This document shows, piece after piece, positions 4,054-26,283 of a stretch of 42,429 bases of DNA. The stretch lies in the NCBI GenBank assembly GCA_012697465.1, contig GCA_012697465.1_4985.1. One strand, written 5' to 3'. The notes beneath the pieces were generated by a model. That model saw only the letters and a list, made by a program, of their open reading frames with translations. It ran no database searches and was not told the DNA's origin. The stretch is from a phage. Each line of letters begins with the position of its first letter. Position 1 is the stretch's first letter. The position numbers and the translations under genes are program-made.

Positions 4054-4935
4054 ATGGCTACTATTGGACAACTCTATAAAGCAGGTGCCACCGAAGCAAA
4101 GCCGCGCAAGGTGTTTTGGGTGCCGCTGGCTGAACTGTATGTGGAAAATGGCTACAACATCCGTGACGTGGACCAGGCGCACGTTGAAGAATTCCGCGAT
4201 GCGTACCTGGCAGGTGAATATGTACCTCCGCTGACCGTGGAAGTGACGCAGCATGGCATCAAGGTGATTGACGGGCACCACCGCTTTGCCGGTGCCAAGA
4301 TGGCCGCAGAAACCGGCTTGGAACTGCGCCTGGAAGTGAACGACATCACCGGCACCAGTGAGGCTGACAAAATCGCGCTGATGGTCACCAGCAGCCAGGG
4401 CAAGCCGCTGGAACCGCTGGAACGCGCCAAAGCCTATGCGCGCCTGAAAGCGCAGGGCTGGACCAATGACGAGATAGCCAGGAAGGTAAAGCGCAGCCCG
4501 TCAGACGTGGCCAACATGCTTGCCCTGGCTGAATGCCCGGAACCCATCAAAGACATGGTGCGCGGCGGCCAGATGTCCTACGTGACCGCCACCGAACTGA
4601 CCCGCCAGCATGGCGCCGAAGCCGAAGCCGTGGCCGCACAGGCGCTGGAAGAAGCCAAAGCCGCTGGCAAGGATAAAGTAACAAAGAAATTCACCGAACC
4701 GAAGGCACCGAAAGCGCAGAAGTCCAAGCCGGAAGCCATCCAGCCACCGTTCGGCAAAGACAAGCTGACGCGCATGGCTGACCTGGCTGTGCATATCGAA
4801 CTGGTTCACAGCGATGAACGCCTGGAAGATGCCGAGGATGACGAATCCATGACCCTGCGCGCACCTGCTGGCGTGGTGCGTGAATTCATGGCGCTGGTGG
4901 CTGACTACGTTGGTGGGGTGAATGATGACCAATAA
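4054..4935 (+). CDS. ParB/Srx-like nuclease-domain protein with HTH region
   Basis: N-terminal region with IKVIDGHHRFAGA (ParB N-terminal domain GxxR-type box) followed by a helix-turn-helix-like segment WTNDEIARKVKRSPSDVANMLAL; acidic C-terminus. Confidence 0.6.
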   Translation: MATIGQLYKAGATEAKPRKVFWVPLAELYVENGYNIRDVDQAHVEEFRDAYLAGEYVPPLTVEVTQHGIKVIDGHHRFAGAKMAAETGLELRLEVNDITGTSEADKIALMVTSSQGKPLEPLERAKAYARLKAQGWTNDEIARKVKRSPSDVANMLALAECPEPIKDMVRGGQMSYVTATELTRQHGAEAEAVAAQALEEAKAAGKDKVTKKFTEPKAPKAQKSKPEAIQPPFGKDKLTRMADLAVHIELVHSDERLEDAEDDESMTLRAPAGVVREFMALVADYVGGVNDDQ

Positions 4936-5495: not shown

Positions 5496-5572
5496 TGGCG
5501 ACCCCTACAGGAATCGAACCTGTAACCTACAGCTTAGAAGGCTGTCGCTCTATCCGGTTGAGCTAAGGGGCC
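5496..5572 (-). tRNA. tRNA-Arg (anticodon UCU)
   Basis: 77-nt cloverleaf folded by hand on the minus strand: 7-bp acceptor stem, D arm, anticodon stem ACAGC/GCUGU with loop CUUCUAA, T arm ACAGG-UUCGAUU-CCUGU, encoded CCA end. Confidence 0.8.
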
Positions 5573-5876: not shown

Positions 5877-7088
5877 ATGCTGACAGAACGCCAGATACAG
5901 GCGGCCATGCGCGCCGTGACCAGTGAAACAGTGTTGAACGATGGGGCCGCAGGACGTGGCAGCGGAAGCCTGCGCCTGCGCATTCGTGCCGGTGCAAAAG
6001 GGCCGAACGCTACCTGGCAGGCCGTCTGGTGGAACGCCGGAAAACAGACCAGTAAGGCGCTTGGCCGCTACCCGGATTTGAGCCTGGCCGACGCGCGCCG
6101 GAAGTATGAAACCGAAGTGCGCGACGTGCTGACGGCTGGCCGTGACCCAAACGCAGTGGTTGCAATGGCCGAAACCCCGACCATTGAAAAATTGTTCCAG
6201 TCTTACATCCAGTACCTGCGCGACAAAGAGACGGCGACCACCCACACATCAGAACACCTGCTGCTGACCGGCAAATACAACGCCGCTGATTTGCTTGGCC
6301 GCAACACCATTGCGTCAACCATCGAACCTGCCGACATCGCCAACGTGCTGGCCAAAGGCGTGAAGCGTGGCGCACGCCGAACCACCGACATGCAGCGCAC
6401 CGCCATGATGGCCGCATTTAATTGGGCGATGAAATCGACACACGATTACACGCAGGAAAACCGCATGGATTGGGGGCTGAAATATAACCCTGTTGCAGCC
6501 GTTCCGCGCGACCAGGCAGCCAACCGCACGCTGGATAGAAACCTGTCAGCGGAGGAAATGAAACACGTATGGGATAACGCGCCGGAACAAAGCGGCGACG
6601 TGATGCGCCTGGTGATGTGCACCGGCCAGCGCGTGATTGAAGTCATGCGCATAGCTGGTGCTGACGTGGACCTGAAAGCCAGGCTGTGGACGATGCCAGC
6701 CAGGAAAACAAAGGGCCGCAAGCAAACCCACATGGTGCCGCTGACCACGCAGGCGGTGGACATCCTGGCCACGCTGATTGACCTGTACGGTGACGGTTAC
6801 CTGTTCCCTGCCCGCGCTGGCGCTAAGGGTGACATTATCGGAATCCCAAGCGTCAGCCGTGGTGCCAGCCGCATGGCAGGCATTAAGCCGTTCACCCCGC
6901 GCGACCTGCGCCGCACCTGGAAGTCACGCGCCGGTGACGCTGGCATTGACAGGTTCACGCGTGACCTTATCCAGCAGCACGCGCAGACTGACACCGGCAG
7001 CAAACATTATGACCGCTTTGACTACCTGCCGCAGATGCGTGACGCGATGACCAAATGGGAAGCCTGGCTGGCTGACGCGCTGAAATAA
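5877..7088 (+). CDS. int: Tyrosine site-specific integrase (P4-type)
   Basis: 403 aa; N-terminal arm-binding-like region (GSGSLRLRIRAGAKG...WQAVWW...YPDLSLADAR), catalytic-domain motifs TGQRVIEV, RDLRRTW, and C-terminal H...HYDRFDY...WEAWL tail; next to a tRNA gene. Confidence 0.85.
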   Translation: MLTERQIQAAMRAVTSETVLNDGAAGRGSGSLRLRIRAGAKGPNATWQAVWWNAGKQTSKALGRYPDLSLADARRKYETEVRDVLTAGRDPNAVVAMAETPTIEKLFQSYIQYLRDKETATTHTSEHLLLTGKYNAADLLGRNTIASTIEPADIANVLAKGVKRGARRTTDMQRTAMMAAFNWAMKSTHDYTQENRMDWGLKYNPVAAVPRDQAANRTLDRNLSAEEMKHVWDNAPEQSGDVMRLVMCTGQRVIEVMRIAGADVDLKARLWTMPARKTKGRKQTHMVPLTTQAVDILATLIDLYGDGYLFPARAGAKGDIIGIPSVSRGASRMAGIKPFTPRDLRRTWKSRAGDAGIDRFTRDLIQQHAQTDTGSKHYDRFDYLPQMRDAMTKWEAWLADALK

Positions 7089-8101: not shown

Positions 8102-8596
8102 TTAAAACGGGATGTCATCGTCAAAATCCATCGGGGGTTCGTTGCCTGATGGTTTCTGCTGCTGGCCGCCGCCGCTGTGTGTTGGCTGCTGCGGCTGTCC
8201 CCATCCGCCTTGCTGGCCGACCTGGCGTTGCCAACCGGCCTGGTTATCGTTTGCCGCTGACAGCATCAACATGCGGCCATTCATGCCCACCACGATTTCA
8301 GTTGTGTAGCGTTCAACGCCAGCCTGGTCCTGCCACTTTCTGGTTTGCAGTGCGCCTTCAATGAACACCTTGCTGCCTTTGCGCAGGTACTGGCTGGCGA
8401 TTTCTGCCAGCTTTCCGAAGATGACCACGCGGTGCCATTCCGTTTTTTCTTTCTTCTCCCCTGTCTGCTTATCCTTCCAGGTTTCGGACGTAGCAATTGA
8501 TAACTGCGCAACGCCGTTGCCGTTCGGCAGTGTGCGGAATTCTGGATCGTTGCCTAAGTTGCCAATCAATTCTACTTTGTTCAATGAACCGGCCAT
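8102..8596 (-). CDS. ssb: Single-stranded DNA-binding protein
   Basis: OB-fold SSB N-terminus ([14 protein letters not shown]...), Gly/Gln-rich linker and acidic tip DFDDDIPF. Confidence 0.9.
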
Positions 8597-8814: not shown

Positions 8815-9223
8815 GTTCTGCCACCGTGCATTTTGGATGGTGGAAGCCGTCCTGGTGCTGGCACACAGGGCAGCAATCGCGCTGCTGTTCGTTGTCGTTA
8901 CCAGCTACCGGCTGGCGGTGACGTTCCAGCCAGATAACTGCGCCAGCCAGGTAGTTGATTGCGCCTAACAATTCGCGCACTGCGGCGTCAACTTGGCCAC
9001 GGTTGGCCATGCCCTGCGCTTCTTCGGATTTCTTATCCGCTTGGCCCAAAATGAAGCCAACGCCACGGCGGTCACCGATGGCCTGCATAGGCTGCTGGTG
9101 GAATGGCTTGTCATCAGCGTGACGTTCTGCGCCTTTGCCTGTTGCGGCCTGGTCAAAGGCGCGTTCCAGTACATCAGCCAGACGTTCATAACCTTTAACA
9201 TCTTTCATTGTCGTTTGCCCCAA
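8807..9223 (-). CDS. Hypothetical protein
   Basis: 138-aa ORF in the early-left operon; start may be the internal ATG (MKDVKGY); weak resemblance to all-alpha NTP-pyrophosphohydrolase proteins not trusted. Confidence 0.4.
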   Translation of the reverse strand: MGQTTMKDVKGYERLADVLERAFDQAATGKGAERHADDKPFHQQPMQAIGDRRGVGFILGQADKKSEEAQGMANRGQVDAAVRELLGAINYLAGAVIWLERHRQPVAGNDNEQQRDCCPVCQHQDGFHHPKCTVAEHG

Positions 9224-11589: not shown

Positions 11590-11861
11590 TCGTTACCTCG
11601 CAATTATTATTCAACGTGACTTCCGATTAACTGCGGTGAATTATGGCTGACGTGTTGTTATACTGTCAACTTCTTTATAACTAACATTGTTTAGATCAGC
11701 GTCACGCGGCCTGATCAACAAACCTTAGCTGTACATCAGCCATGCGTTTTTTGCACATCGCGGTTTGATTGACGTCAATGACCATTACTACTGGTTGCAA
11801 CTTCGCCACGTAGTAACATACAATTGCGAATACTTTAAATGATGGCGAATGAACGATAATT
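11590..11861. promoter_or_regulatory. Divergent early control region (leftward recombination operon / rightward replication operon)
   Basis: 272-bp AT-rich non-coding gap between divergently oriented operons; candidate -35/-10 hexamers (TTGACG, TTGCAA...TACAAT); no repressor gene adjacent. Confidence 0.35.
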
Positions 11862-13280
11862 ATGGGCGTAATACTTAGGGACTATCAATCCGACATTATC
11901 AATAGGGCGCGCCTTTCTATGCGGCGCAACCGGCGCGTGTTATTGCAGGCACCAACAGGCGCGGGGAAAACTGCGCTGGCGTCATTCATGGCTGGGGAAG
12001 CATCGGCCAAAGGCCAGCAGGTGTGGTTTATTTGCCACCGCGCTGAACTGGTATTACAGACCAGTTTGACATTCAGGAAGTTCGGCATTGACCACGGATT
12101 TATTGCCGCAGGCTATCCCATGAACCTGCGCGCCGGGGTGCAGGTGTGCAGCATCGACACCCTGAAAAACCGCCTGCACACCCTGCCCGCCCCTAAGCTG
12201 GCCATCATGGACGAAGCGCACCACTGTGGCGCGGCGGGTTGGGCGCGCGTCAACGCCTGGCTGTTTGAGAATGGCGCGTATGTCATCGGCCTGTCAGCTA
12301 CGCCAAAGCGCCTGGACGGCACCGGCCTGGATGACCACTTTGACGACATCGTGTTAGGGCCATCTGTGCGATGGCTGATGGATAACGGCCACCTGTCTGA
12401 CTATCGCATGTTCTGCCCGGACATCCCTGACATGAAGGGTGTACGCAAGCAGATGGGCGATTTCTCAAAAGGCGAAACCGCCGAGAAGATGGATAAGCCG
12501 AAACTAACCGGCAACATCATCAGCCACTGGCTGAAATACGCCAAAGGCATGAAAACGGTTGGCTTCGCGGTCAACATAGCGCACAGCCGCCACTTAACGC
12601 AGGCATTCGTTGATTCAGGCATCCGTGCCGCACACCTGGACGGCGGCACCGATAAGGCGGAACGTAAGCGCATCATCCAGGACTACGCCAACGACAACCT
12701 GGATGTGATTTTCAACGTGTCGCTGTTCGGTGAAGGTTTCGACCTGTCAGCCATCGCACAAACTGACGTGACGATTGACTGCCTGATTGACGCGCAGCCT
12801 ACACAATCATTGTCGCTGGTGTTGCAGAAAGATGGGCGCGTGTTGCGACCGTCCAAAGGCAAAACCGCCATCATTCTGGACCACGCAGGAAATGCGCTGC
12901 GTCATGGCTTCCCTGACGACGAACGCGAATGGTCACTGGCTGGCGATGACAGCGGCAGCAAATCCAGCAGTGCTGGTGGCCCACCGCCGCCAGTCATTTG
13001 CAAAGGCTGTTTCAACGCCATCCGCCGACCACTGCCGCCGAAGTGCCCGCACTGCCAGAAGGAACTACAGGCCGAAGCCAGAGAAATTGAAGTGGCAGAA
13101 GGCGAACTGCGCGAAATGGACGAACGCGCCAAAGAAAGCCTGCGCGCGAAGATGAAACGCGAGGAAGATGCTTGCAAGGATATTGGCGCACTGACCGCCC
13201 TGGCGATGAAACGCGGGCTGCCGAACCCATCAGGGTGGGCCATAGCGAAGATGGGCGGAAGAAGATTTAAGCGTAAATAG
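11862..13280 (+). CDS. Superfamily-2 DEAH-box helicase with C-terminal zinc ribbon
   Basis: Motif I APTGAGKT, motif II DEAHH, motif III SAT, motif VI QKDGRVLRP; CKGC...CPHC ribbon near the C-terminus. Confidence 0.8.
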   Translation: MGVILRDYQSDIINRARLSMRRNRRVLLQAPTGAGKTALASFMAGEASAKGQQVWFICHRAELVLQTSLTFRKFGIDHGFIAAGYPMNLRAGVQVCSIDTLKNRLHTLPAPKLAIMDEAHHCGAAGWARVNAWLFENGAYVIGLSATPKRLDGTGLDDHFDDIVLGPSVRWLMDNGHLSDYRMFCPDIPDMKGVRKQMGDFSKGETAEKMDKPKLTGNIISHWLKYAKGMKTVGFAVNIAHSRHLTQAFVDSGIRAAHLDGGTDKAERKRIIQDYANDNLDVIFNVSLFGEGFDLSAIAQTDVTIDCLIDAQPTQSLSLVLQKDGRVLRPSKGKTAIILDHAGNALRHGFPDDEREWSLAGDDSGSKSSSAGGPPPPVICKGCFNAIRRPLPPKCPHCQKELQAEAREIEVAEGELREMDERAKESLRAKMKREEDACKDIGALTALAMKRGLPNPSGWAIAKMGGRRFKRK

Positions 13281-13287
13281 CTTATGT

Positions 13288-13328
13288 ATTAATAGGTATA
13301 ACCGATTAGCGATATTTACCAAAGTAAA
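13288..13328 (+). promoter_or_regulatory. Conserved ~40-bp promoter/operator-like element, copy A (ATTAATAGGTATAACCGATTA...TTTACCAAAGTAAA)
   Basis: Near-identical element at 19131-19169; contains dyad TTTAC-N4-GTAAA followed 2-3 bp later by a -10-like hexamer (TATAGT). Confidence 0.5.
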
Positions 13329-13384
13329 GGTATAGTTATTTCACCGGCACACAGGTGCCCAACAACAAAAGAGGAAACACCCAA

Positions 13385-14053
13385 ATGGCACGTTTAACCG
13401 CTGCAATCCGTGATGGCATCATTGCCAACGCAATCAAAACCAAAGACTTTGCAGGCCGTGATTTGGCTATCGTTCAAAAGCGCGCTGATTTTGCTGAACG
13501 TCTGCGCCTGTTCATCCTGGGTGAATATGGGCTGACCGATGCGCGACTGGATGAAATTAAGGCGCAGGTTGATGAACTGGCAAAAGAAGTTAAGCACGAA
13601 GGCTCTAGCTATGTGCGAGTAGATTTTAGTGGCTGCGTATACCGACTGGACGTTAACTTATCTGGCCAGTCTCGTTACATTTACCGTAACGGTGTGAGCA
13701 ACGATAAACGATATGAGCCGCTATTCAATACATCGGTTGCTGAATACGACGAAACAAAGTATTCACCTCACACCAGCGAATGTGACTTCACAGTGCGCGA
13801 TCCTAAATGGCGCGAAGAACTGGACGCCATTGACCTGGAGGCCGCGCAACTGCGTGAAGAATACAACACGCTGAAATCAACGCTACGGGCCACAATTTCA
13901 GCATTCACGACTGTGGAAAAACTCATGGAAGCATGGCCAGACGTGAAAGAACTGATTCCAGAAACTACGCCGATCGCTAAACAGCCAGGCACTGGCATTG
14001 CGCTGTCAGTAGCTGACCTGAACGCGCTGTGCGGAATTCCTACTGGCAAATAA
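13385..14053 (+). CDS. Hypothetical protein
   Basis: ATG at 13385 preceded by AAGAGGA; the track ORF begins earlier at a GTG (13355); no motif recognised. Confidence 0.5.
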   Translation: MARLTAAIRDGIIANAIKTKDFAGRDLAIVQKRADFAERLRLFILGEYGLTDARLDEIKAQVDELAKEVKHEGSSYVRVDFSGCVYRLDVNLSGQSRYIYRNGVSNDKRYEPLFNTSVAEYDETKYSPHTSECDFTVRDPKWREELDAIDLEAAQLREEYNTLKSTLRATISAFTTVEKLMEAWPDVKELIPETTPIAKQPGTGIALSVADLNALCGIPTGK

Positions 14054-14095
14054 CAACCATGCCCGGTGCGCCGGGCAATTCTCACAGGTGACACC

Positions 14096-14488
14096 ATGAA
14101 AAAACTTATCATCGCCGCTTTCATCCTGGCGGCCACCAGCGCAGCAGCACAGGCGAGCGAATGCCTGCCAGGAATGGATCCGGCAAAGGACAACTGCCAG
14201 GTGACGGAAGAACAGGAACCGGCACCACAGCCGGAATTACAGGACGTGGACCAGGTTTACTACTGCCTTGAACTGCAAAAAATCGCCGTCAAAATAGCTG
14301 AACTGCGTGACAAAGGGGCAGGCGAACAGGGCGTGGTCACCATGCTGGCTAACAACAACCAGAACCGCATCATTTGGGTGGCGCGCCAGGTGTTCTGGCC
14401 GCAATCGACTGACCTGTCACCAAAACAAATTGGCTTGCGTGTGTGGATGCGCTGCAATTCCGGCGAGTATCCGGGGGTAAACTTCTGA
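14096..14488 (+). CDS. Secreted/periplasmic small protein with signal peptide
   Basis: MKKLIIAAFILAATSAAAQA signal peptide (AQA-SE cleavage context) and four Cys in the mature part. Confidence 0.5.
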   Translation: MKKLIIAAFILAATSAAAQASECLPGMDPAKDNCQVTEEQEPAPQPELQDVDQVYYCLELQKIAVKIAELRDKGAGEQGVVTMLANNNQNRIIWVARQVFWPQSTDLSPKQIGLRVWMRCNSGEYPGVNF

Positions 14489-14898
14489 TGGCTAACAAAG
14501 AACACGCGCTACAGAACGCAATCCGCAACGCCCTGGCTGGCCGCTGCCTGCTGTTCCGCGCCAACGTGGGCAAGGCGTACACCAGTAATGACATTGTGAA
14601 GGTTCCACGCCAGATGCCGGTTGTGATGGGTCCGCGTGACGTGCTGCTGAAAAACGCCAGGCCATTTGACACCGGGCTGCCACCAGGGTTTTCCGACCTG
14701 TTCGGAATGGTCAGCGTGGAAATCACGCATGACATGGTTGGGCAGAAAGTGGCTATCTTCACCGGCCTGGAAGTCAAAGACGGTGCCCGCGTGTCACCGT
14801 TGCAGCGAAACTTCATCAACGCGGTGAACGATAACGGGGGCCGCGCCGGTGTTGTGCGGTCAGTGGCTGACGCTGAAAAACTGGTGTTCGGCAAATGA
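14488..14898 (+). CDS. VRR-NUC domain nuclease
   Basis: PD-(D/E)XK core GFSDL...GLEVKDG...Q motif arrangement typical of VRR-NUC; start overlaps the upstream stop (TGATG). Confidence 0.6.
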   Translation: MANKEHALQNAIRNALAGRCLLFRANVGKAYTSNDIVKVPRQMPVVMGPRDVLLKNARPFDTGLPPGFSDLFGMVSVEITHDMVGQKVAIFTGLEVKDGARVSPLQRNFINAVNDNGGRAGVVRSVADAEKLVFGK

Positions 14899-14973
14899 GC
14901 ATAAAACAGATAGCATCCGACGCACTGCGCTACAGCGTAGACACCGGACGATCAATGATGGAGTGGCTAAACC

Positions 14974-15138
14974 ATGATGACAATCGAAAGCATTCGCAGA
15001 CTGTTTGCAGAAGCACTGGTGACCAGGAACCACATCACGTTCCTGGCAGCAAAAACGGCAATGTGGAATCTGAACCGTTACGGCATGTTAACGGCGCTTG
15101 AAGTGGAAAACCTGAAACAGACGTGGGGTGTTGAATGA
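14974..15138 (+). CDS. Hypothetical small protein (54 aa; alternative to track ORF 14895-15101)
   Basis: Helical-looking translation MMTIESIRRLFAEALV...; stop overlaps the next start (ATGA); below the 60-aa cutoff of the track. Confidence 0.3.
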   Translation: MMTIESIRRLFAEALVTRNHITFLAAKTAMWNLNRYGMLTALEVENLKQTWGVE

Positions 15139-15371
15139 ATATTTTGAAAGTGGCAATGCAGCGGCTGGTTGACGCCTGGAAGGTATCAGCCAGGGAAATC
15201 AGCCTGGGTTTTCAAATGGCGCTGGTGCGCGCTGGATGGCGTCCAAAGGTGCGGTCAATGCAAGTGGTGCTGGACTATCCGAAGCCAGGGCCACGCCGTT
15301 CACGATTCACCGGCATTGCAGCTATGCGCCGAAAGGCACGGAAGGAGCGCAACAGGAGGGCGGCCGCATGA
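15135..15371 (+). CDS. Hypothetical small basic protein
   Basis: 78-aa ORF, translationally coupled on both sides. Confidence 0.35.
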   Translation: MNILKVAMQRLVDAWKVSAREISLGFQMALVRAGWRPKVRSMQVVLDYPKPGPRRSRFTGIAAMRRKARKERNRRAAA

Positions 15372-15592
15372 ACCCGGTAGACTTCATCAAAAAACAAGTC
15401 ATGGCCGAACTGGTGAAGCAAGGCGCATCACCTGGCACAGCGCAGCACGCGGCTGACTACGCGGCGCAACAGTACCGCACCACGTCAACTATCGGCAAAG
15501 ACCCTTTCGCTGAACTGATACGCCTGGCAGGCGCAATGGCCATGAAGCACCAGGCCGGTTTCCGTTTCGTGATGCCGAAATCATCAAGATGA
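15368..15592 (+). CDS. Hypothetical small protein
   Basis: Internal ATG (MNPVDFIKK...) overlapping the upstream stop (ATGA); 74 aa. Confidence 0.35.
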   Translation: MNPVDFIKKQVMAELVKQGASPGTAQHAADYAAQQYRTTSTIGKDPFAELIRLAGAMAMKHQAGFRFVMPKSSR

Positions 15593-15626
15593 CGTAAGAT
15601 TATTTCAAAAGATATTTACTTTAGGA

Positions 15627-15652
15627 AATGCGCCCTGTACTATGGGCGCATT
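15627..15652. promoter_or_regulatory. Perfect palindrome AATGCGCCC-N8-GGGCGCATT (candidate operator)
   Basis: 9-bp arms, 8-bp spacer, 20 nt upstream of the small HTH gene start. Confidence 0.4.
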
Positions 15653-15672
15653 GTTATTACGAGGCTATTACT

Positions 15673-15861
15673 ATGGACGAAAGGACCGAACGACTTCACG
15701 ACATTATGGCTAAACATGGCTTAACCTGCCGCGATGTTGGCCGTTTACTTGGCCGCACTGAACAAACGGTGCTTATCTGGCGCTGTAAGGGCGGGAAAGT
15801 CATTCCGACCCACCAGCTTGAATTGCTTGAGTATAAATTGTCCGGGGGTAACAAATTATGA
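15673..15861 (+). CDS. Small HTH DNA-binding protein (Cro-like regulator, putative)
   Basis: 62 aa from ATG with GAGG RBS; HTH-like LTCRDVGRLLGRTEQTVLIWR. Confidence 0.45.
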   Translation: MDERTERLHDIMAKHGLTCRDVGRLLGRTEQTVLIWRCKGGKVIPTHQLELLEYKLSGGNKL

Positions 15862-16556
15862 GTAAAGGAATTATTATCTGCCTGTGTGACATCACTGGCG
15901 TAATGGCAAAGCCGTGGGTTGACGCAGGTTATGAAGCCGTTCTGGTTGACCCGCAGCACCCGGAAGGCGTTCACGTTGATGGCGCAATCACCCGCGTTGG
16001 CCATATTATCGACCATCCAGCTACGTGGGATATTTTGCGCCGCACCGTGTCCACTGGTCACGTTGTTTTTGTTATGGGGTTCCCTCCATGCACTGATTTG
16101 GCGGTAAGCGGTGCTCGCTGGTTTAGCACGAAACGTGAGGCTGACCCGGCTTTCCAGTTCAAAGCAATGCACGTTGTGTGGCAGTGCCAGATTATTGGCG
16201 AGATGGCCGGTGTGCCGTGGGCCGTTGAAAACCCGGTAAGCCAGATTAGCAGCCTGTGGCGTAAACCCGACTACGCTTTCAACCCGGATGACTTTACTGG
16301 ATATTGCGCAAACGACAATTACACAAAGAAAACATGCCTTTGGACTGGTGGCGGTTTCGTTATGCCGGAAGCGTTCCGCGATGAAACGTTAGGCGCGCCA
16401 GATGACAGAATCCATAAATGCCCACCTGGTCCAGAGCGTGCAAACATCCGCAGCGCAACGCCATTGGGCTTCGCCATTGCTGTTTTCAACGCCAACGCGC
16501 CTCACCTGCGCCACGCTAACGACAATGAACCGTCAAGCGGTGAGGCTGTCGCGTGA
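15858..16556 (+). CDS. Compact DNA (cytosine-5)-methyltransferase-like protein
   Basis: GFPPC (motif IV-like with catalytic Cys), AVENP (ENV motif VI-like), C-terminal RSATPLGFAIAVF (motif X-like); only 232 aa. Confidence 0.45.
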   Translation: MSKGIIICLCDITGVMAKPWVDAGYEAVLVDPQHPEGVHVDGAITRVGHIIDHPATWDILRRTVSTGHVVFVMGFPPCTDLAVSGARWFSTKREADPAFQFKAMHVVWQCQIIGEMAGVPWAVENPVSQISSLWRKPDYAFNPDDFTGYCANDNYTKKTCLWTGGGFVMPEAFRDETLGAPDDRIHKCPPGPERANIRSATPLGFAIAVFNANAPHLRHANDNEPSSGEAVA

Positions 16557-16783
16557 ACGCCTGTACCTGGCAGCCCACCACAGTGACGCTGCACGATGGG
16601 CGCGAAGTGTTGAGCGATAGCCGGGAATGGTTGCTGGAATGCGAAGCCAAATACGTTCTGAATCAGCCAACCATTGAAGCACGGCGCACCCTGCTGGCAG
16701 CGATAGAAAAACGGCGCGGAGCAACAGCCCGCGAAGAACTAGAACAACGCGCACTGGCCATATGGCGCGCTAACAGGCCATAA
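16553..16783 (+). CDS. Hypothetical protein
   Basis: 76-aa ORF with non-ATG start overlapping the upstream stop. Confidence 0.3.
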   Translation: MNACTWQPTTVTLHDGREVLSDSREWLLECEAKYVLNQPTIEARRTLLAAIEKRRGATAREELEQRALAIWRANRP

Positions 16784-16795
16784 AATCGGGGTTCT

Positions 16796-19099
16796 ATGAG
16801 TGCACAACAAAACTATAAGGATTTGACTGAACAGGAAATTGCAGAAGCACTTTCCTACATTGACGCCGGTTGCGACCGTGAAACATGGGTGCGCATGGCT
16901 ATGGCGGTCAAATCGGAATTAGGCGACGGCGGTTTCACCGTCTGGAATGACTGGTCACGCCAGTCTGACAAGTACAACAGCAAAGACGCGCGCGACACCT
17001 GGAAATCAGTGAAGCGTCACGGCGGCATTGGCATTGGCACCCTGATTGGTGAGGCGCAGTTATTTGGCTTTTCGCTGAACGATAACGAACGCACACCGAT
17101 TTCTGCCGAAGAGATTCAGGCGCGTAAAAAACGCCGCGAAGAAGAAGAGCGCAAAGAACAACAACTGCGCGCAGAACGTATGGCGCAGGCAGCAGAGCAG
17201 GCGCGCAACATATGGGAATCAGCTACCGAACTGGAAGGAGATGAACACCCATACCTGAAACGCAAACTTGTTAAATCATTCGGGCTGCGCATCGGTCGTT
17301 TTCGTAACCAGGATGGCGCGCTACTGGTGCCAATCAGAAACATTGACGGGCAGATCACCAGCCTGCAAGCCATATTCCAGAACGAAAACCCACAGCTAGG
17401 GCGTGACCGTGATTACCTTCCTGGTGGTCAGAAACGTGGGTGCTTCCACGTCATTGGCAACAAACCAACTGGTGCAAATCCGGTTATTGTCATCTGTGAA
17501 GGCTATTCCACCGGTGCATCCATTCACATGTCTACCGGTTACTGCGTGGTGGTCGCGTTCGATGCCGGTAACGTGCCGACCGTAGCCAAGTTGATGCGTC
17601 AGCAGTTCGGACGCGCAACAATTGTTGTGGCAGCCGATAACGACCAGTGGCACGAAGATGGCAAGCAAAATGATGGTGTTCACTACGCGCGCCAGGCATC
17701 AATCACCACTGGTGGCCTGCTGGCGGTTCCTAAATTTACGCGCCTTAGCGATAAGCCTACCGACTTCAATGACCTGCACGTACTGGAAGGTTTAAACGCT
17801 GTAAGCAACCAGATTAACGCGGTGATACCGGAACCAGTGAATGATAACTTTCTGCCACTTGATGCCAGCGTAAACCCGTTCATGTTCCCGCACATGAGCC
17901 ACCAGCAAAAACCGCTTAACACGTGGGAAAACCTGGAATGGCTGCTTACCCAGTACGGCATCAAATCGCGTTACAACGAAATCAGCAAAGATGTGGTAGT
18001 TACGATCCCCGGCAAGGATTACGGCAACGACGCATCAGCTAACAGCGCATTGACTGAAATTGTCAGCCTGTGTGCCCGCAACGGTATGCCGTCTGGTTCC
18101 TGTGCTGAGTATGTAAAACTGATTGCCATGAGCAATCGCTACAACCCGGCATCTGAATTTATCACCGCAAAACCGTGGGATGGTGTGAGCCGCATTTATG
18201 ACCTGTGCGATACACTGGAAACGGCGGAAGGTTTTGACCGCAGCCTGGTGTTGATGATGGTTCGCCGCTGGTTGATTTCCGCCGTTGCTGCCGCGATGCA
18301 GCCAACTGGGTTCTACTCAAAAGGCGTTCTGGTGCTACAGGGTGAACAGTCGCTGGGGAAAACAGCATGGTTTCGCTCGCTGGTGCCGCCTACACTGCGC
18401 GAACTGATTAAGGTAGGGGCAACAATCGACCCGGCAAACAAAGATAGCGTCAGCAGCGCAATAGGCCGCTGGATGGTGGAGCTTGGCGAACTGGATGCAA
18501 CTTTCCGTAAATCGGACATCGCACGCCTTAAATCATTCATCAGCCAGGACCGTGACGAAATCCGCAGACCTTATGACCGGCTTGAATCGACCTACCAGCG
18601 CAGAACCGTGTTTTTTGCGTCAGTGAACCCGAAACACTTCCTGGCGGATGACACTGGGAACGTTCGCTGGTGGACTATCCCGGTAACGCGCATCAACTAC
18701 GAACACGATATTGATATGCAGCAGGTTTGGGCTGAAGTGGCGCAGTTGTACCGAGAAGGCGAACGCTGGTGGATGAACGCAGAAGAAGAAGCCATGCTGG
18801 AACAAGTTAACAAGGAACACGAAGCTATTGACCCGGTAGAGGAAATGATACTGATGCGTTACGAGTGGGGTTGCGACAGACCAGCAGCCTATACCGACCG
18901 TACAGCAACGCAGGTGCTGCAAGAAATTGGCTACGACAAGCCGAACAAGGCACAGACTACACATTGTGCAGGGGTGCTGAGAAAACTCACTGGTAAGCCT
19001 GCCAGGAAGTCTGGAAGCAATCGCCTGTTCAGCATTCCGCCGAAGGTGCCAAACCCTGACCACCGGCGATTCAATGACGATGATGACCGGCCATTTTGA
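16796..19099 (+). CDS. DNA primase (PriCT-2 + Toprim + VirE-like P-loop domain), P4-alpha-like replication protein
   Basis: N-terminal PriCT-like segment (DRETWVRMAMAV...FTVWNDW), Toprim core (VIVICEGYSTG...AADND), C-terminal Walker A QGEQSLGKT. Confidence 0.75.
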   Translation: MSAQQNYKDLTEQEIAEALSYIDAGCDRETWVRMAMAVKSELGDGGFTVWNDWSRQSDKYNSKDARDTWKSVKRHGGIGIGTLIGEAQLFGFSLNDNERTPISAEEIQARKKRREEEERKEQQLRAERMAQAAEQARNIWESATELEGDEHPYLKRKLVKSFGLRIGRFRNQDGALLVPIRNIDGQITSLQAIFQNENPQLGRDRDYLPGGQKRGCFHVIGNKPTGANPVIVICEGYSTGASIHMSTGYCVVVAFDAGNVPTVAKLMRQQFGRATIVVAADNDQWHEDGKQNDGVHYARQASITTGGLLAVPKFTRLSDKPTDFNDLHVLEGLNAVSNQINAVIPEPVNDNFLPLDASVNPFMFPHMSHQQKPLNTWENLEWLLTQYGIKSRYNEISKDVVVTIPGKDYGNDASANSALTEIVSLCARNGMPSGSCAEYVKLIAMSNRYNPASEFITAKPWDGVSRIYDLCDTLETAEGFDRSLVLMMVRRWLISAVAAAMQPTGFYSKGVLVLQGEQSLGKTAWFRSLVPPTLRELIKVGATIDPANKDSVSSAIGRWMVELGELDATFRKSDIARLKSFISQDRDEIRRPYDRLESTYQRRTVFFASVNPKHFLADDTGNVRWWTIPVTRINYEHDIDMQQVWAEVAQLYREGERWWMNAEEEAMLEQVNKEHEAIDPVEEMILMRYEWGCDRPAAYTDRTATQVLQEIGYDKPNKAQTTHCAGVLRKLTGKPARKSGSNRLFSIPPKVPNPDHRRFNDDDDRPF

Positions 19100-19104
19100 T
19101 TAAT

Positions 19105-19130
19105 AACCCGCTTCGGCGGGTTTTGTTTTT
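19105..19130 (+). terminator. Rho-independent terminator after primase
   Basis: CCCGC-TTCG-GCGGG hairpin followed by TTTTGTTTTT. Confidence 0.55.
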
Positions 19131-19219: not shown

Positions 19220-20122
19220 ATGAAACAAGTAACGATTGACACCGTGCGCGAGCGCATAGCGGAACTGGAAATGGTCAACAGTCACGGTGAACTGTCACTG
19301 CGCGGCGAATTTGAATTGGCGTGTTTGCGGCAGTTGGCGGCATTACAAGAGCGAGTTGCGGAACTGGAAGAAAACGACCGCGAACAAATGGATGAACTGT
19401 ACCGAAGAAATGCGACGATTCACCGGCTGCAACAGCAGGCATCGCAGGTAGTGACGGTCGCGCCGGTAGTGCCGGATGAAATGACACCGGAAATGATGCG
19501 CGCAGTCCAGTTGAATAGCGAACTTGGTGCGTATGCAGTGTCAAACTTATCTGGCGCATATGACCTGTTCTCCGAATTCTGGAAGGTGGCCCGCAGCGCC
19601 GCCATGCTCAACCAGGCGCACCAGGAACCAGACACAGACAACACCGCGCAGCAGTTCGAGGCGTTGGCCACCAGCGCGCAGCGTGAACCAGTGGCTGCGG
19701 TGAAGCACTACACCGGGAATGAATACCCCACTCTGAAATTTGCGCAGAATGAATGGTGCGTATGCGGTGACCGTGATGATGCGCAGGAACTGGCTGACGC
19801 CATCAACGCACTGGCCACCAGAGCGGGAAGCGGCAAGAGTGAACACATGTTGAATGCGGAACGGATAGCCAGGGAAGCGCAAGCACTGTCTGACAGGCTG
19901 AACGCCACCAACGCGGTGCATCCCCGCGTTAGTGGTTGGTCAGAGCGTCAGCAAAAGGTGATTTCTTATGCGCTTTGGCGTTTCAGTTGCGCCGCTTATC
20001 AAAAGGCCAATCAGGCTGCACAGACAAATAACAAAGACATGTTTGATCGCTTTATTCGTGACGCACGATGCGCCGAGGAAATACGCGAGGAATTCACCAG
20101 CGCGTGGGTCGGCAAGCTATGA
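19220..20122 (+). CDS. Hypothetical protein (coiled-coil N-terminus)
   Basis: 300-aa ORF downstream of conserved element copy B; no motif recognised. Confidence 0.5.
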   Translation: MKQVTIDTVRERIAELEMVNSHGELSLRGEFELACLRQLAALQERVAELEENDREQMDELYRRNATIHRLQQQASQVVTVAPVVPDEMTPEMMRAVQLNSELGAYAVSNLSGAYDLFSEFWKVARSAAMLNQAHQEPDTDNTAQQFEALATSAQREPVAAVKHYTGNEYPTLKFAQNEWCVCGDRDDAQELADAINALATRAGSGKSEHMLNAERIAREAQALSDRLNATNAVHPRVSGWSERQQKVISYALWRFSCAAYQKANQAAQTNNKDMFDRFIRDARCAEEIREEFTSAWVGKL

Positions 20123-20865: not shown

Positions 20866-21300
20866 ATGGAATTACCGCGCACTGTGCAGGAAATAGCTGA
20901 CGTTATTGGCCGTGAACGTGCGCTTTTTCTTATCGGACAACTGCCAAAACTGTGGGTGCCATCGCAGCAATACCACAAAGTCATCCTGTATGTACCAAAG
21001 CGGATTCGACCCAATGACCCACTGGTGAAAATCCTGGGGTGGCATGATTCCAGCAAGATGGTGCAGCACTTCGGAGGTGAAATGCTTCACCCGGCTAATT
21101 GTGAATACATTTACCGCCATTTCATTCACCGCAGCATTAAGCGGATGCACAGCGAAGGAATGGACGCAAAAGCTATTGCGGAACTTCTTGACGTGTCAGA
21201 GCGCACCGTTAAGCGCCATTGCACTGACAAACCCCACAAAGACACATCACCTGCAAATGACAACCATCAGCACCGACTACTAATGACTACGGGGCAATAA
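20866..21300 (+). CDS. Mor/C-family transcriptional activator (putative late-gene activator)
   Basis: 144 aa; central ...ILYVPK... segment and C-terminal HTH AIAELLDVSERTVKRH; directly upstream of the lysis and packaging genes. Confidence 0.4.
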   Translation: MELPRTVQEIADVIGRERALFLIGQLPKLWVPSQQYHKVILYVPKRIRPNDPLVKILGWHDSSKMVQHFGGEMLHPANCEYIYRHFIHRSIKRMHSEGMDAKAIAELLDVSERTVKRHCTDKPHKDTSPANDNHQHRLLMTTGQ

Positions 21301-24286: not shown

Positions 24287-26283
24287 CCAGCGTGCTTGAG
24301 GCTGACCAGCGAGCGGCCCAGAACCTGATACCGCCGGAAGATTTAAAGCCGAGCGAATGGGCTGAAAAAAACGTACAAATCCCGGTTGGTAACGCCAAGC
24401 CTGGACCTATCCGTTTCGCTAACGCGCCTTACCAGCGAGGTATGCTTGACGCCATCAAGGAACCTGGCGTGCGACGCATTAGCTACATGACTGGCGCACA
24501 GCTTGGAAAAACAACAATCCAGCAGTGCATTACTGGATATTTCATCGAACACGAACCGAGAAGCCAGATTTTTGTTCAGCCGACGCAGGGCGACGTTCAG
24601 ACATTTCAGGAAACCAAACTGCGCCCAATGCTTGACGCTAACCCTAAAATCAGCCGCCTGATGGCCAAGCAGCGCGGGCGTGAAGGGGTGAATAACAGCA
24701 GGATTATTTCCTATATCGGCGGTTGGCTGATGTTTAGCTGGGCAGGTAGTCCAAAAACTCTGCGCGGGCGTTCCGCACCAGTCACGCAAGCTGACGAAAT
24801 CGACGGTTTTGAAGCAACGGCAGAGGGTGACCCCGGCGAACTTCTGGCACAGCGTGCTGCGTCATTTGGTGATGATGCTCTGCGTACTGAATCAAGTACG
24901 CCGACCATCAAGGGTGAAAGCCGGATTGAAACTGCGTTTGAACTTGGTGACCAGCGTCGTTACCACGTGCGTTGCCAAGATTGTGGCACACTGCAATATT
25001 TCCACTGGCAAAACGTCACGTGGGTTGGCCGCAAGTCAACTGGTATTGATGATGCAGAAAACGACCTTAACTGCGAGCATCAGCCGGAAACAGCGGCATA
25101 CGTTTGCGAGGGCTGCGGATCATGTTGGGATGATGGCCAACGTGTAGCAGCTATCCGCGAAGCCGAAAGCAACGGAGGTGGCTGGATAGCTTCCAAACCG
25201 TTCAAAGGTCACATCTCTTTCCATGCGCCGGAAATGCTTTCGACTTTTCGCCGGTTACGCGACATTGTTCAATCATATCTGGATAAACTTGCGCTTGGTG
25301 ACCTGCAATCTTTCGTCAACGTCAGCCTTGGTGAAACTTACGACGAACAAGGCGACAAAGTTGACCCGGATTCACTGATGGCCCGCCGAGAGGAATACGC
25401 AGCGCCGGTTCCTGCTGGTGGTCTGTATATCACCGCAGGCATAGACATGCAGGTTGACCGCCTGGAATGTGAGGTGGTGGCCTGGGGCGTGGGTGAAGAA
25501 TCCTGGTCATTGGGTTACCACGTATTGTGGGGCGACCCGCTGACGCCTGACCCATGGGATGCGCTGGATGACCTGCTGGCGGAAACCTACCAGCATGAAA
25601 CCGGGGCCATTATGCCTATCATGGCCGCCTGCCTCGACACAGGGGGCACCAGTGGTTACACGCAGGCCGCCTATGACTACGCCAGGGGGCGCACAGGCCG
25701 CCGTCTGTTCGCCATCAAAGGTGTTGGCGGATGGGGCCGCCCTATCGTGGAGAAGCCGCAGCGCAAGCAATCCGGGAAGGATGCCCGCAAGGTGGATTTA
25801 TTCCTGGTTGGCACCGATGAAGCCAAGCTGATAACCGCACGGCGTTTAAACAAGACGGCACCGGGGCCGGGTTATTGCCATTTCCCTGCTGACCGCGATG
25901 AAGAATGGTTCAAGCAGATCACCGCTGAAAAACTTACCATGCGTTACGTGAAGGGCCAGCCAATACGCGAATGGAAGAAGCCGGACAAGGCGCGAAACGA
26001 AGCACTTGACTGCCGCAACTATGCGCTGGCCGCGCTGAAAATCATGCAGCCGTCATTCCGCCGCCTGGCTGAAAAGTTTGGCGTAGCGAACGACAACGCG
26101 CCACCGGAACGCCGCAAGCGGCTACCGAACGTCAAACCCATCGTGAAACCGGCAGAACCACCGAAACCGGCCAATGACAAACCCCAAGAAGAAGAAAAAC
26201 AGCAAGTCACAGAGACTAAGACCATTAAACGTTCCGCCATGGCCGCAAAACGCCGTGGCGGTGGATGGGTTAGCCGCTGGTGA
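24256..26283 (+). CDS. Terminase large subunit (lambda GpA family)
   Basis: 675 aa; N-terminal ATPase region and overall layout of GpA-type terminases; follows a Nu1-like gene. Confidence 0.8.
   Translation: MDNKQQFSNLTSVLEADQRAAQNLIPPEDLKPSEWAEKNVQIPVGNAKPGPIRFANAPYQRGMLDAIKEPGVRRISYMTGAQLGKTTIQQCITGYFIEHEPRSQIFVQPTQGDVQTFQETKLRPMLDANPKISRLMAKQRGREGVNNSRIISYIGGWLMFSWAGSPKTLRGRSAPVTQADEIDGFEATAEGDPGELLAQRAASFGDDALRTESSTPTIKGESRIETAFELGDQRRYHVRCQDCGTLQYFHWQNVTWVGRKSTGIDDAENDLNCEHQPETAAYVCEGCGSCWDDGQRVAAIREAESNGGGWIASKPFKGHISFHAPEMLSTFRRLRDIVQSYLDKLALGDLQSFVNVSLGETYDEQGDKVDPDSLMARREEYAAPVPAGGLYITAGIDMQVDRLECEVVAWGVGEESWSLGYHVLWGDPLTPDPWDALDDLLAETYQHETGAIMPIMAACLDTGGTSGYTQAAYDYARGRTGRRLFAIKGVGGWGRPIVEKPQRKQSGKDARKVDLFLVGTDEAKLITARRLNKTAPGPGYCHFPADRDEEWFKQITAEKLTMRYVKGQPIREWKKPDKARNEALDCRNYALAALKIMQPSFRRLAEKFGVANDNAPPERRKRLPNVKPIVKPAEPPKPANDKPQEEEKQQVTETKTIKRSAMAAKRRGGGWVSRW
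26176..26192 (+). repeat. 17-bp element GACAAACCCCAAGAAGA, copy 1
   Basis: Exact 17-mer, inside the 3' end of the terminase gene (codons DKPQEE). Confidence 0.7.

Follow-up and report, generated by a model that had tools for sequence, protein, structure and literature searches.

The window analysed here, a stretch of 42,429 nucleotides (nt) of phage DNA (contig GCA_012697465.1_4985.1 of GenBank assembly GCA_012697465.1), carries among its replication genes a gene for a protein of 232 amino acids (aa), which is probably an orphan DNA cytosine-C5 methyltransferase, dependent on S-adenosyl-methionine (SAM), co-expressed with the replisome and protecting new phage DNA from cytosine-sensitive restriction. 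A preliminary description, made from the sequence alone, had placed an open reading frame (ORF) at 15858-16556 (plus strand) and read its product as an unusually compact C5 methyltransferase-like protein, either a minimal anti-restriction methylase or an enzyme of different chemistry, such as base hypermodification. The ORF lies exactly at these positions. The reading is carried by what can be observed directly, namely the ORF, its conserved motifs, the fold of its product, its family membership and its nature as an accessory cassette; raised 5-methylcytosine (5mC) and the triggering of a retron defence are known from a homologue with 38% identity and may apply here by analogy.

Family membership, motifs and fold

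Judged from its sequence, the window protein is an ordinary member of a known and already annotated family, PHROG 757 ('DNA methyltransferase'), whose profile it matches over its full length with an E-value of 6.8e-81, positions 12-231 of the 247 in the profile being covered by aa 1-226. Relatives at E<=1e-3 number 6003 among the 90%-identity clusters and 1717 among the 50% representatives, and the family is present in 1550 of 50,697 phage records (~3%), including Drexlerviridae, rV5-like, RB49-like, Klebsiella and Campylobacter phages, many of the copies being annotated as cytosine methylase. The impression of unusual compactness is correct with respect to classical enzymes such as E. coli Dcm (472 aa) but does not extend to the family: since nearly all members measure 200-270 aa, this size is the norm and no oddity. 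Among the sources of the close relatives (60-78% identical) are genomes of Pseudomonas, Agrobacterium, Pectobacterium and Cronobacter. As Pfam and NCBIfam have no model for the family, bacterial (prophage) copies with a source name are almost all labelled 'hypothetical protein'.

Conservation was scored across 64 family members with identities as low as 32%. Of the residues, D31, C78, E124, P126, K157, T159, W162 and G204 are invariant, and F75-P76-P77, N125, R198-S199 and T201-P202 are conserved in at least 90% of the members. The strings quoted in the preliminary description, GFPPC (aa 74-78), AVENP (aa 122-126) and RSATPLGFAIAVF (aa 198-210), thus stand as conserved motifs, not as chance strings. 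The Pro-Cys of motif IV of C5 methyltransferases is present as FPPC (aa 75-78) with its invariant Cys, and motif VI as ENP (aa 124-126), the canonical Val being replaced by an invariant Pro. At the position of the motif VIII QxRxR stands YTKKT and, in place of a sizeable target-recognition domain, 34 residues separate the motif VIII-like strand from motif X. In the motif X-like segment, F205 and A208, like R198, S199, T201 and P202, are at least 90% conserved around the invariant G204. As for motif I, it is degenerate, as had been noticed: CDITG is found here, the family consensus being (F)DxTG and the canonical form FxGxG, and close relatives keep D11, T13 and G14 in at least 90% of cases. 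The segment aligns weakly with LYSGIGGM of DNMT2 (family profile, E=0.47). From what is known of class I methyltransferases, the invariant D31 is presumed to contact the SAM ribose.

Concerning the recognition loop, close relatives share conserved F167, P170, P181, D182, R184, I185, R194 and N196, and some relatives have an insertion of ~33 aa in this region. The Cys-containing segment, previously pointed out as a feature, did not survive the comparison: none of C150, C160 and C188 is kept family-wide, C160 being conserved (~90%) in close relatives only. A zinc-binding role of these residues was therefore rejected, and with it a metal-binding module. In one family member (P0237, 548 aa), an intein with Hint and LAGLIDADG domains sits between FPP and the catalytic Cys (...GFPP/CFTGDTLV...IVHN/CTNLSVSG, slashes marking its ends), and this Cys doubles as the +1 splice residue. 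Inteins are typically inserted at functionally critical sites.

No match at threshold was found for the protein in Pfam, NCBIfam and PDB sequence searches, and none in Pfam at E<=1. PF00145, whose gathering threshold the window protein does not reach, is the only Pfam family recurrently matched, by 6 of the 64 members, all below threshold (best E=0.0039). Sequence links to individual C5 enzymes are not significant either: the family profile against PDB places motifs I, II and IV of DNMT2 in register at E=0.47, and in hhalign against a single sequence, that of E. coli Dcm, the only aligned segment pairs FPPC with FPCQ and ENP with ENV at a probability of 1.3%.

The predicted fold gives a clearer picture. 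The AlphaFold2 model, based on a 24-sequence alignment, has a mean predicted local distance difference test score (pLDDT) of 84.6 and a predicted template modelling score of 0.83, and its strands and helices alternate in the way usual for class I methyltransferases. A Foldseek search against PDB returned DNMT3A/B as all of the top 18 matches (best E=1.3e-5), with TM-scores of only 0.4-0.5; against viral models, phage cytosine methylases of the PHROG 757 family came first, followed by canonical C5 enzymes. The structure-prediction check proposed earlier thus gave a class I, Rossmann-type methyltransferase closest to C5 DNA methyltransferases. Its 34-residue recognition segment is comparable only to the small recognition domain of DNMT3 enzymes, from which the protein nevertheless differs by an identity of 11-18%, the low TM-scores and the lack of a significant sequence match. 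Moreover, DNMT3 enzymes act on CpG as DNMT3L-assisted tetramers and have chromatin-reading domains, for which the window protein has nothing comparable. Compared with the classical C5 enzymes of PF00145 (E. coli Dcm, M.HhaI, M.HaeIII), it is ~100-240 aa shorter, lacks their large target-recognition domain, has a degenerate motif I, and carries ENP and KK where they have ENV and QxRxR.

The degenerate motif I and the missing Pfam match are also what would be expected of a catalytically dead relic, or of a DNA-binding protein merely keeping the fold. This explanation is hardly credible: down to 32% identity, family members show little or no variation in the catalytic Cys and Glu and in the motif X residues, and such conservation, together with relatives 60-78% identical across genera, indicates a strong purifying selection on the active site.

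A characterised homologue and the nature of the substrate

One member of the family has been studied experimentally, the Dcm of phage K42, a phage sharing 95.4% with the BASEL phage KarlJaspers. Four of four K42 escapers from retron Ec86 disrupt a 711-bp gene described as a 'Dcm-like C5 cytosine methyltransferase', whose product triggers the retron; by liquid chromatography-mass spectrometry, the expressed wild-type protein raised the 5mC of the multicopy single-stranded DNA (msDNA), whereas C82A/E128A/K175A/K176A did not (bioRxiv 10.1101/2023.08.16.553469). The authors of that study superposed an AlphaFold2 model of K42 Dcm on DNMT3A and predicted K175/K176 to be substrate-binding residues, the CCWGG specificity being assumed from the host Dcm and not measured (bioRxiv 10.1101/2023.08.16.553469).

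From gene length and residue numbering, we infer that K42 Dcm is the same gene as bas04_0049 of phage FritzSarasin, which measures 711 bp from an internal Met and has Cys, Glu, Lys and Lys exactly at 82, 128, 175 and 176. Genes of the FritzSarasin type are at least 97% conserved in related Warwickvirus phages. The FritzSarasin protein and the window protein share 38% identity over their full length (E=8e-46), and C82, E128, K175 and K176 of K42 Dcm align with C78, E124, K157 and K158 of the latter. Both belong to PHROG 757, are of similar size (236 vs. 232 aa) and have their FPPC, ENP, KKTCLW and RSxTPxGFA segments aligned; in Warwickvirus too, the gene is solitary among early genes, with an adjoining helicase. 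The two proteins differ in that they represent other subfamilies and phage groups (Drexlerviridae vs. Jilinvirus), and the Warwickvirus protein carries an insertion of 14 aa ahead of the KK motif and ends in ...ESNSK, without the ANDN/AVA tail of the window protein. Fold prediction, fold searches and this 5mC-raising homologue together substantiate the methyltransferase fold and the C5-type motifs first read from the sequence.

The only substrate demonstrated for the family being a retron msDNA hairpin, the real m5C substrate could also be RNA or a single-stranded or hairpin nucleic acid, as for DNMT2, rather than duplex phage DNA. The tiny target-recognition region is in keeping with such a substrate, and the sole in-register PDB sequence match is DNMT2, a tRNA methyltransferase. 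That match is nonetheless not significant (E=0.47), and the fold searches favour the DNA enzymes DNMT3A/B. In addition, the gene is embedded among DNA replication genes, and the fusions found in the family are all to DNA enzymes: a Dam-type N6-adenine DNA methyltransferase (P0121, 563 aa), an HNH nuclease (P0169, 348 aa) and a helicase domain (BFVD A0A6J5SE15 and A0A6J5NPY6, where the family domain is part of proteins of more than 1100 aa). A substrate other than duplex DNA is therefore considered quite improbable.

An accessory cassette in the early operon

The window shares 98.4% identity with Escherichia phage vB_EcoM_ECO1230-10 (genus Jilinvirus), whose Orf43 is 99.1% identical to the window protein at the protein level and is labelled 'DNA methyltransferase' in RefSeq vs. 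'conserved phage protein' in the original GenBank record. Klebsiella phage KA2-1 has the same gene at the same place. Of the 13 related records, 9 lack the gene and cover a 2.5-kb query spanning it to 56-71% only; they correspond to ep3, ECOO78, PT1, Bas97, Alux-21 and Arya, with three of these phages represented by two records each, and the ep3 gene map confirms the absence. According to gene maps and junction alignments with ep3, ECO1230-10 and KA2-1, similarity to ep3 ends at window position 15830, 28 nt before the end of the upstream gene, and restarts at the overlap TGA (16554). The resulting swap of 723 nt for 28 nt is clean and translational coupling is kept, the flanking helix-turn-helix (HTH) and 76-aa genes both being present in phages without the methyltransferase gene. 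The latter is a precise, dispensable accessory cassette.

Instead of it, ep3 and ECOO78 possess an unrelated DPPY-type (PF01555) methyltransferase of the N6 type after the primase, indicating that methyltransferases are interchangeable accessory modules in the Jilinvirus group. The slot just past the primase terminator is itself variable: it contains a 300-aa ORF without Pfam match in the window (19220-20122, plus strand), the N6-type methyltransferase in ep3 and ECOO78, and small ORFs in ECO1230-10.

An active DNA methyltransferase might also serve purposes other than anti-restriction, such as epigenetic control of phage or host genes (e.g. of lysis-lysogeny timing) or the marking of replicated DNA for packaging. 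The integrase and ParB-like genes of this phage and the residence of close homologues in bacterial chromosomes, as prophage genes, would suit such a role, and the possible degron tail described below hints at tight dosage control. Against it, the cassette is dispensable and absent from those 9 records, and two of the phages concerned carry the unrelated N6-type enzyme, a pattern usual for anti-restriction accessory genes and not for core regulators; a regulatory or packaging role thus appears unlikely.

With regard to gene context, the previously proposed placement in a replication operon was borne out, the gene lying between those for an SF2 helicase and a VRR-NUC resolvase, on one side, and the primase on the other (Table 1). 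Its ATG overlaps the stop codon of the upstream 77-aa HTH gene (ATGA) and its TGA the GTG start of the downstream 76-aa gene (GTGA). No cognate restriction endonuclease was found beside it, its neighbours being the HTH and 76-aa proteins. Early/replication genes likewise surround the homologues of a P. aeruginosa prophage, of an Agrobacterium prophage and of two metagenomic phages, and no endonuclease neighbour was recognisable by Pfam in five homologue contexts (L006, L007, L008, L013 and L014), where many neighbours are without any match. In the P. aeruginosa prophage (L006, 1790-3558), a bAvd accessory gene and a reverse transcriptase gene are found ~2.4 kb upstream of the methyltransferase homologue, with Lcl_C-domain genes directly upstream of bAvd; this locus looks like a diversity-generating retroelement.

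The same operon encodes an Nmad5-domain protein, the Pfam name standing for 'nucleotide modification associated domain 5', and a point mutation in the nmad5 of a Dhillonvirus leads to phage escape from the Tmn defence (PMC11846954). The Nmad5 gene is found in Jilinviruses both with and without the C5 methyltransferase. A functional link between the two genes was rejected on this ground: as Nmad5 occurs in sister phages devoid of the methyltransferase, they are not a functional pair.

This observation also bears on hypermodification, the other chemistry that had been envisaged, in which a C5-fold enzyme would transfer a non-methyl group (e.g. a carboxymethyl from carboxy-SAM, Cx-SAM, as in CmoX) and start a modification pathway. 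CmoX (PDB 8yf3; PMC12783734) has 333 aa, binds Cx-SAM via a key Arg and is typically encoded beside CmoA and the CmoY ligase. In the fold search, 8yf3 scores no better than ordinary C5 methyltransferases. Neither a Cx-SAM synthase nor a partner (CmoA, CmoY or such families) was found in the subset of 20 window ORFs scanned against PHROGs and Pfam. Since, moreover, the gene is dispensable in sister phages, Nmad5 offers no functional partner and the homologue's product was detected as 5mC, this part of the preliminary description was abandoned as very unlikely.

Among features away from the gene, a tRNA-Arg(TCT) gene (5496-5572, minus strand) adjoins a tyrosine-integrase gene (5877-7088, plus strand), and a ParB-HTH protein is encoded at 4054-4935. 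Taken together, these genes suggest a temperate or formerly temperate lifestyle.

Table 1. Location of the methyltransferase gene, its motifs and associated features in the window
Feature	Position	Strand	Description and basis
Early/replication operon	11795-19122	+	Promoter-like site, helicase, Nmad5, resolvase, small ORFs, HTH, methyltransferase, 76-aa gene, primase, terminator-like hairpin; ORFs and family matches
Promoter-like site	11795-11824		Consensus scan; scans as a set not above chance
SF2 helicase	11862-13280		Co-directional with methyltransferase
Nmad5-domain protein	13355-14053	+	232 aa; Pfam Nmad5, E=7.9e-39
VRR-NUC resolvase	14443-14898		Co-directional with methyltransferase
Accessory cassette	15831-16553	+	723 nt: last 9 codons of upstream HTH gene and methyltransferase gene; 28 nt in ep3
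Methyltransferase coding sequence	15858-16556	+	232 aa, ATG to TGA, stop codon included; ORF list and translation
Motif I-like CLCDITG (aa 8-14)	15879-15899	+	Degenerate SAM-binding loop after strand beta1 (model strand E5-9)
Motif II-like VDPQ (aa 30-33)	15945-15956	+	Invariant D31 at end of beta2; aligns with VDI of DNMT2
Motif IV GFPPC (aa 74-78)	16077-16091	+	Predicted nucleophile C78, invariant; K42 Dcm C82
Motif VI AVENP (aa 122-126)	16221-16235	+	E124, Glu of ENV-type motif; K42 Dcm E128
Motif VIII-like YTKKTCLW (aa 155-162)	16320-16343	+	K157/K158 where canonical QxRxR; K42 Dcm K175/K176
Short loop at target-recognition-domain position (aa 164-197)	16347-16448	+	34 aa, mostly coil, two short helices; 10-residue block pLDDT 61-95
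Motif X-like RSATPLGFAIAVF (aa 198-210)	16449-16487	+	C-terminal helix closing cofactor site (model helix 203-213)
C-terminal tail HANDNEPSSGEAVA (aa 219-232)	16512-16553	+	Disordered, tmRNA-tag-like, one ANDN copy; pLDDT <50 for aa 221-232
Primase	16796-19099		767 aa; co-directional with methyltransferase
Terminator-like hairpin	19105-19122		Consensus scan; scans as a set not above chance
ANDN sites	8243-8254(-), 9207-9218(-), 12687-12698, 16308-16319, 16515-16526, 21253-21264, 26086-26097		

The C-terminal tail and the ANDN motif

The tail of the methyltransferase, HANDNEPSSGEAVA, resembles the E. coli transfer-messenger RNA (tmRNA) tag, ANDENYALAA (ARAGORN reading). Among the 120 closest clusters, 43 end in Ala-Ala, where shuffling of the tails gives 8.8 on average and never more than 18 in 500 rounds, and 35 carry ND[NDES] in the tail (1.2 expected), both counts being inflated by the relatedness of the sequences. 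Ala-Ala ends are also present in 13 of 102 more distant representatives and in 17 of 120 members of the PF01555 family, the background being 7 of 175 phage ORFs. The unrelated N6-type methyltransferase of ep3 has a similar tail, AAANDNQASSNSVVA (L002:7465-7512), ending in ...AAAANDNQASSNSVVA. Recent recombination was rejected as the source of the shared tails, which differ at synonymous positions. The enrichment of Ala-Ala ends in both methyltransferase families suggests that these tails are ClpX-type degrons. That HANDNEPSSGEAVA itself is a functional short linear motif, mimicking the tmRNA tag by its ANDN stretch and its Ala-rich end and serving either for timed destruction by SspB/ClpXP or for docking on a hub common to the DNA-transaction proteins of the phage, can be put forward only tentatively.

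Other C-termini recall the tip of SSB, the protein that binds single-stranded DNA. Several PF01555 phage methyltransferases related to that of ep3 (P0319, P0323, P0326, P0335, P0339, P0369 and P0390) end in ...ETEPPIF or ...ESPIF, reminiscent of the SSB tip DDDIPF and possibly another docking peptide on a methyltransferase. The primase C-terminus in the window (19067-19099, ...RRFNDDDDRPF) resembles the tip of the phage SSB (8102-8596, minus strand; ...MDFDDDIPF) and may be an SSB-tip mimic.

The ANDN tetrapeptide of the tail, which recalls the beginning of the tmRNA tag, is not restricted to the methyltransferase. For the DNA pattern GCNAAYGAYAAY, 7 occurrences were counted in the window, where 0.23 would be expected and none of 100 shuffles gave more than 2. 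At the protein level, ANDN is the top over-represented tetrapeptide, with 7 copies in the window (0.14 expected, P=2e-10) and 8 each in ep3 (P=4e-12) and the more distant Arya (P=6e-12), the expected number being 0.14-0.15 per proteome; the lambda proteome has none. Two metagenomic relatives (L013 and L014) have 4 and 6 pattern matches in ~15 kb each. A DNA-level explanation was judged unlikely, as each of the 33 matches, from five genomes or loci, lies on the coding strand and in frame, and as the wobble bases differ between orthologous sites, following general codon usage. The motif is carried by the SSB linker, the helicase, the primase, the large terminase, a tail-fibre-like protein, the C-terminal tails of the late activator and of a 73-aa regulator, the exonuclease VIII of Arya, and both accessory methyltransferases, the unrelated N6-type enzyme of ep3 having thus also acquired it. 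It recurs at orthologous sites even though the flanks diverge and is usually followed by a Pro/Glu/Gln-rich sequence. An SspB/ClpXP tag mimic and a docking peptide for a common hub are the candidate explanations for these repeated copies.

Proposed role and implications

In the proposed mechanism, the methyltransferase would be translated from the early operon alongside the replication proteins. Binding of SAM would fall to the degenerate motif I, to D31 and to the motif X helix; C78 (motif IV) would attack C6 of the cytosine and E124 (motif VI) protonate its N3, while K157/K158 (motif VIII-like) and the 34-aa loop would contact the flipped base and the DNA, the methyl group passing from SAM to C5. 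New phage DNA, and collaterally host DNA, would in this way be marked with 5mC at a short sequence before packaging. Such marking would shield the phage from cytosine-sensitive restriction systems, at the cost of becoming detectable by methylation-sensing defences such as retron Ec86, whose triggering is a possible liability for this phage by analogy with K42. The 'minimal anti-restriction methylase' of the preliminary description thereby remains the best reading, in agreement with the fold, the motifs and the 5mC-raising homologue; its anti-restriction role, as well as the timing, the chemistry of individual residues and the target sequence, are what we infer from these.

As for the target, CCWGG, CCGG, GGCC, GCGC and other sites are equally frequent in the window and in ep3 (e.g. 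226 vs. 263 CCWGG sites). Because ep3 lacks the gene, such counts are uninformative, and guessing the target site from oligonucleotide counts was abandoned. A literature search for methylome data on phages carrying the PHROG 757 family returned nothing relevant. Other sites are depleted in the window: GATC (66 observed vs. 160 expected), CTGCAG (0 vs. 15) and GAGCTC (0 vs. 11.7 by base composition, but ~0.1 by a Markov estimate). The depletion pattern of ep3 is nearly the same, and this looks like a restriction-site avoidance independent of the methyltransferase.

The present analysis adds one uncharacterised member to a very abundant phage family of which one member has been studied experimentally, and which occurs in phage groups used as models and considered for therapy. 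A phage carrying the gene may become visible to defences that sense methylation, retron Ec86 among them, a point of relevance when host ranges are predicted. The one feature that deserves more attention here is the ANDN/tmRNA-tag-like motif which, if functional, would represent a novel type of peptide signal shared by the proteins of a phage.

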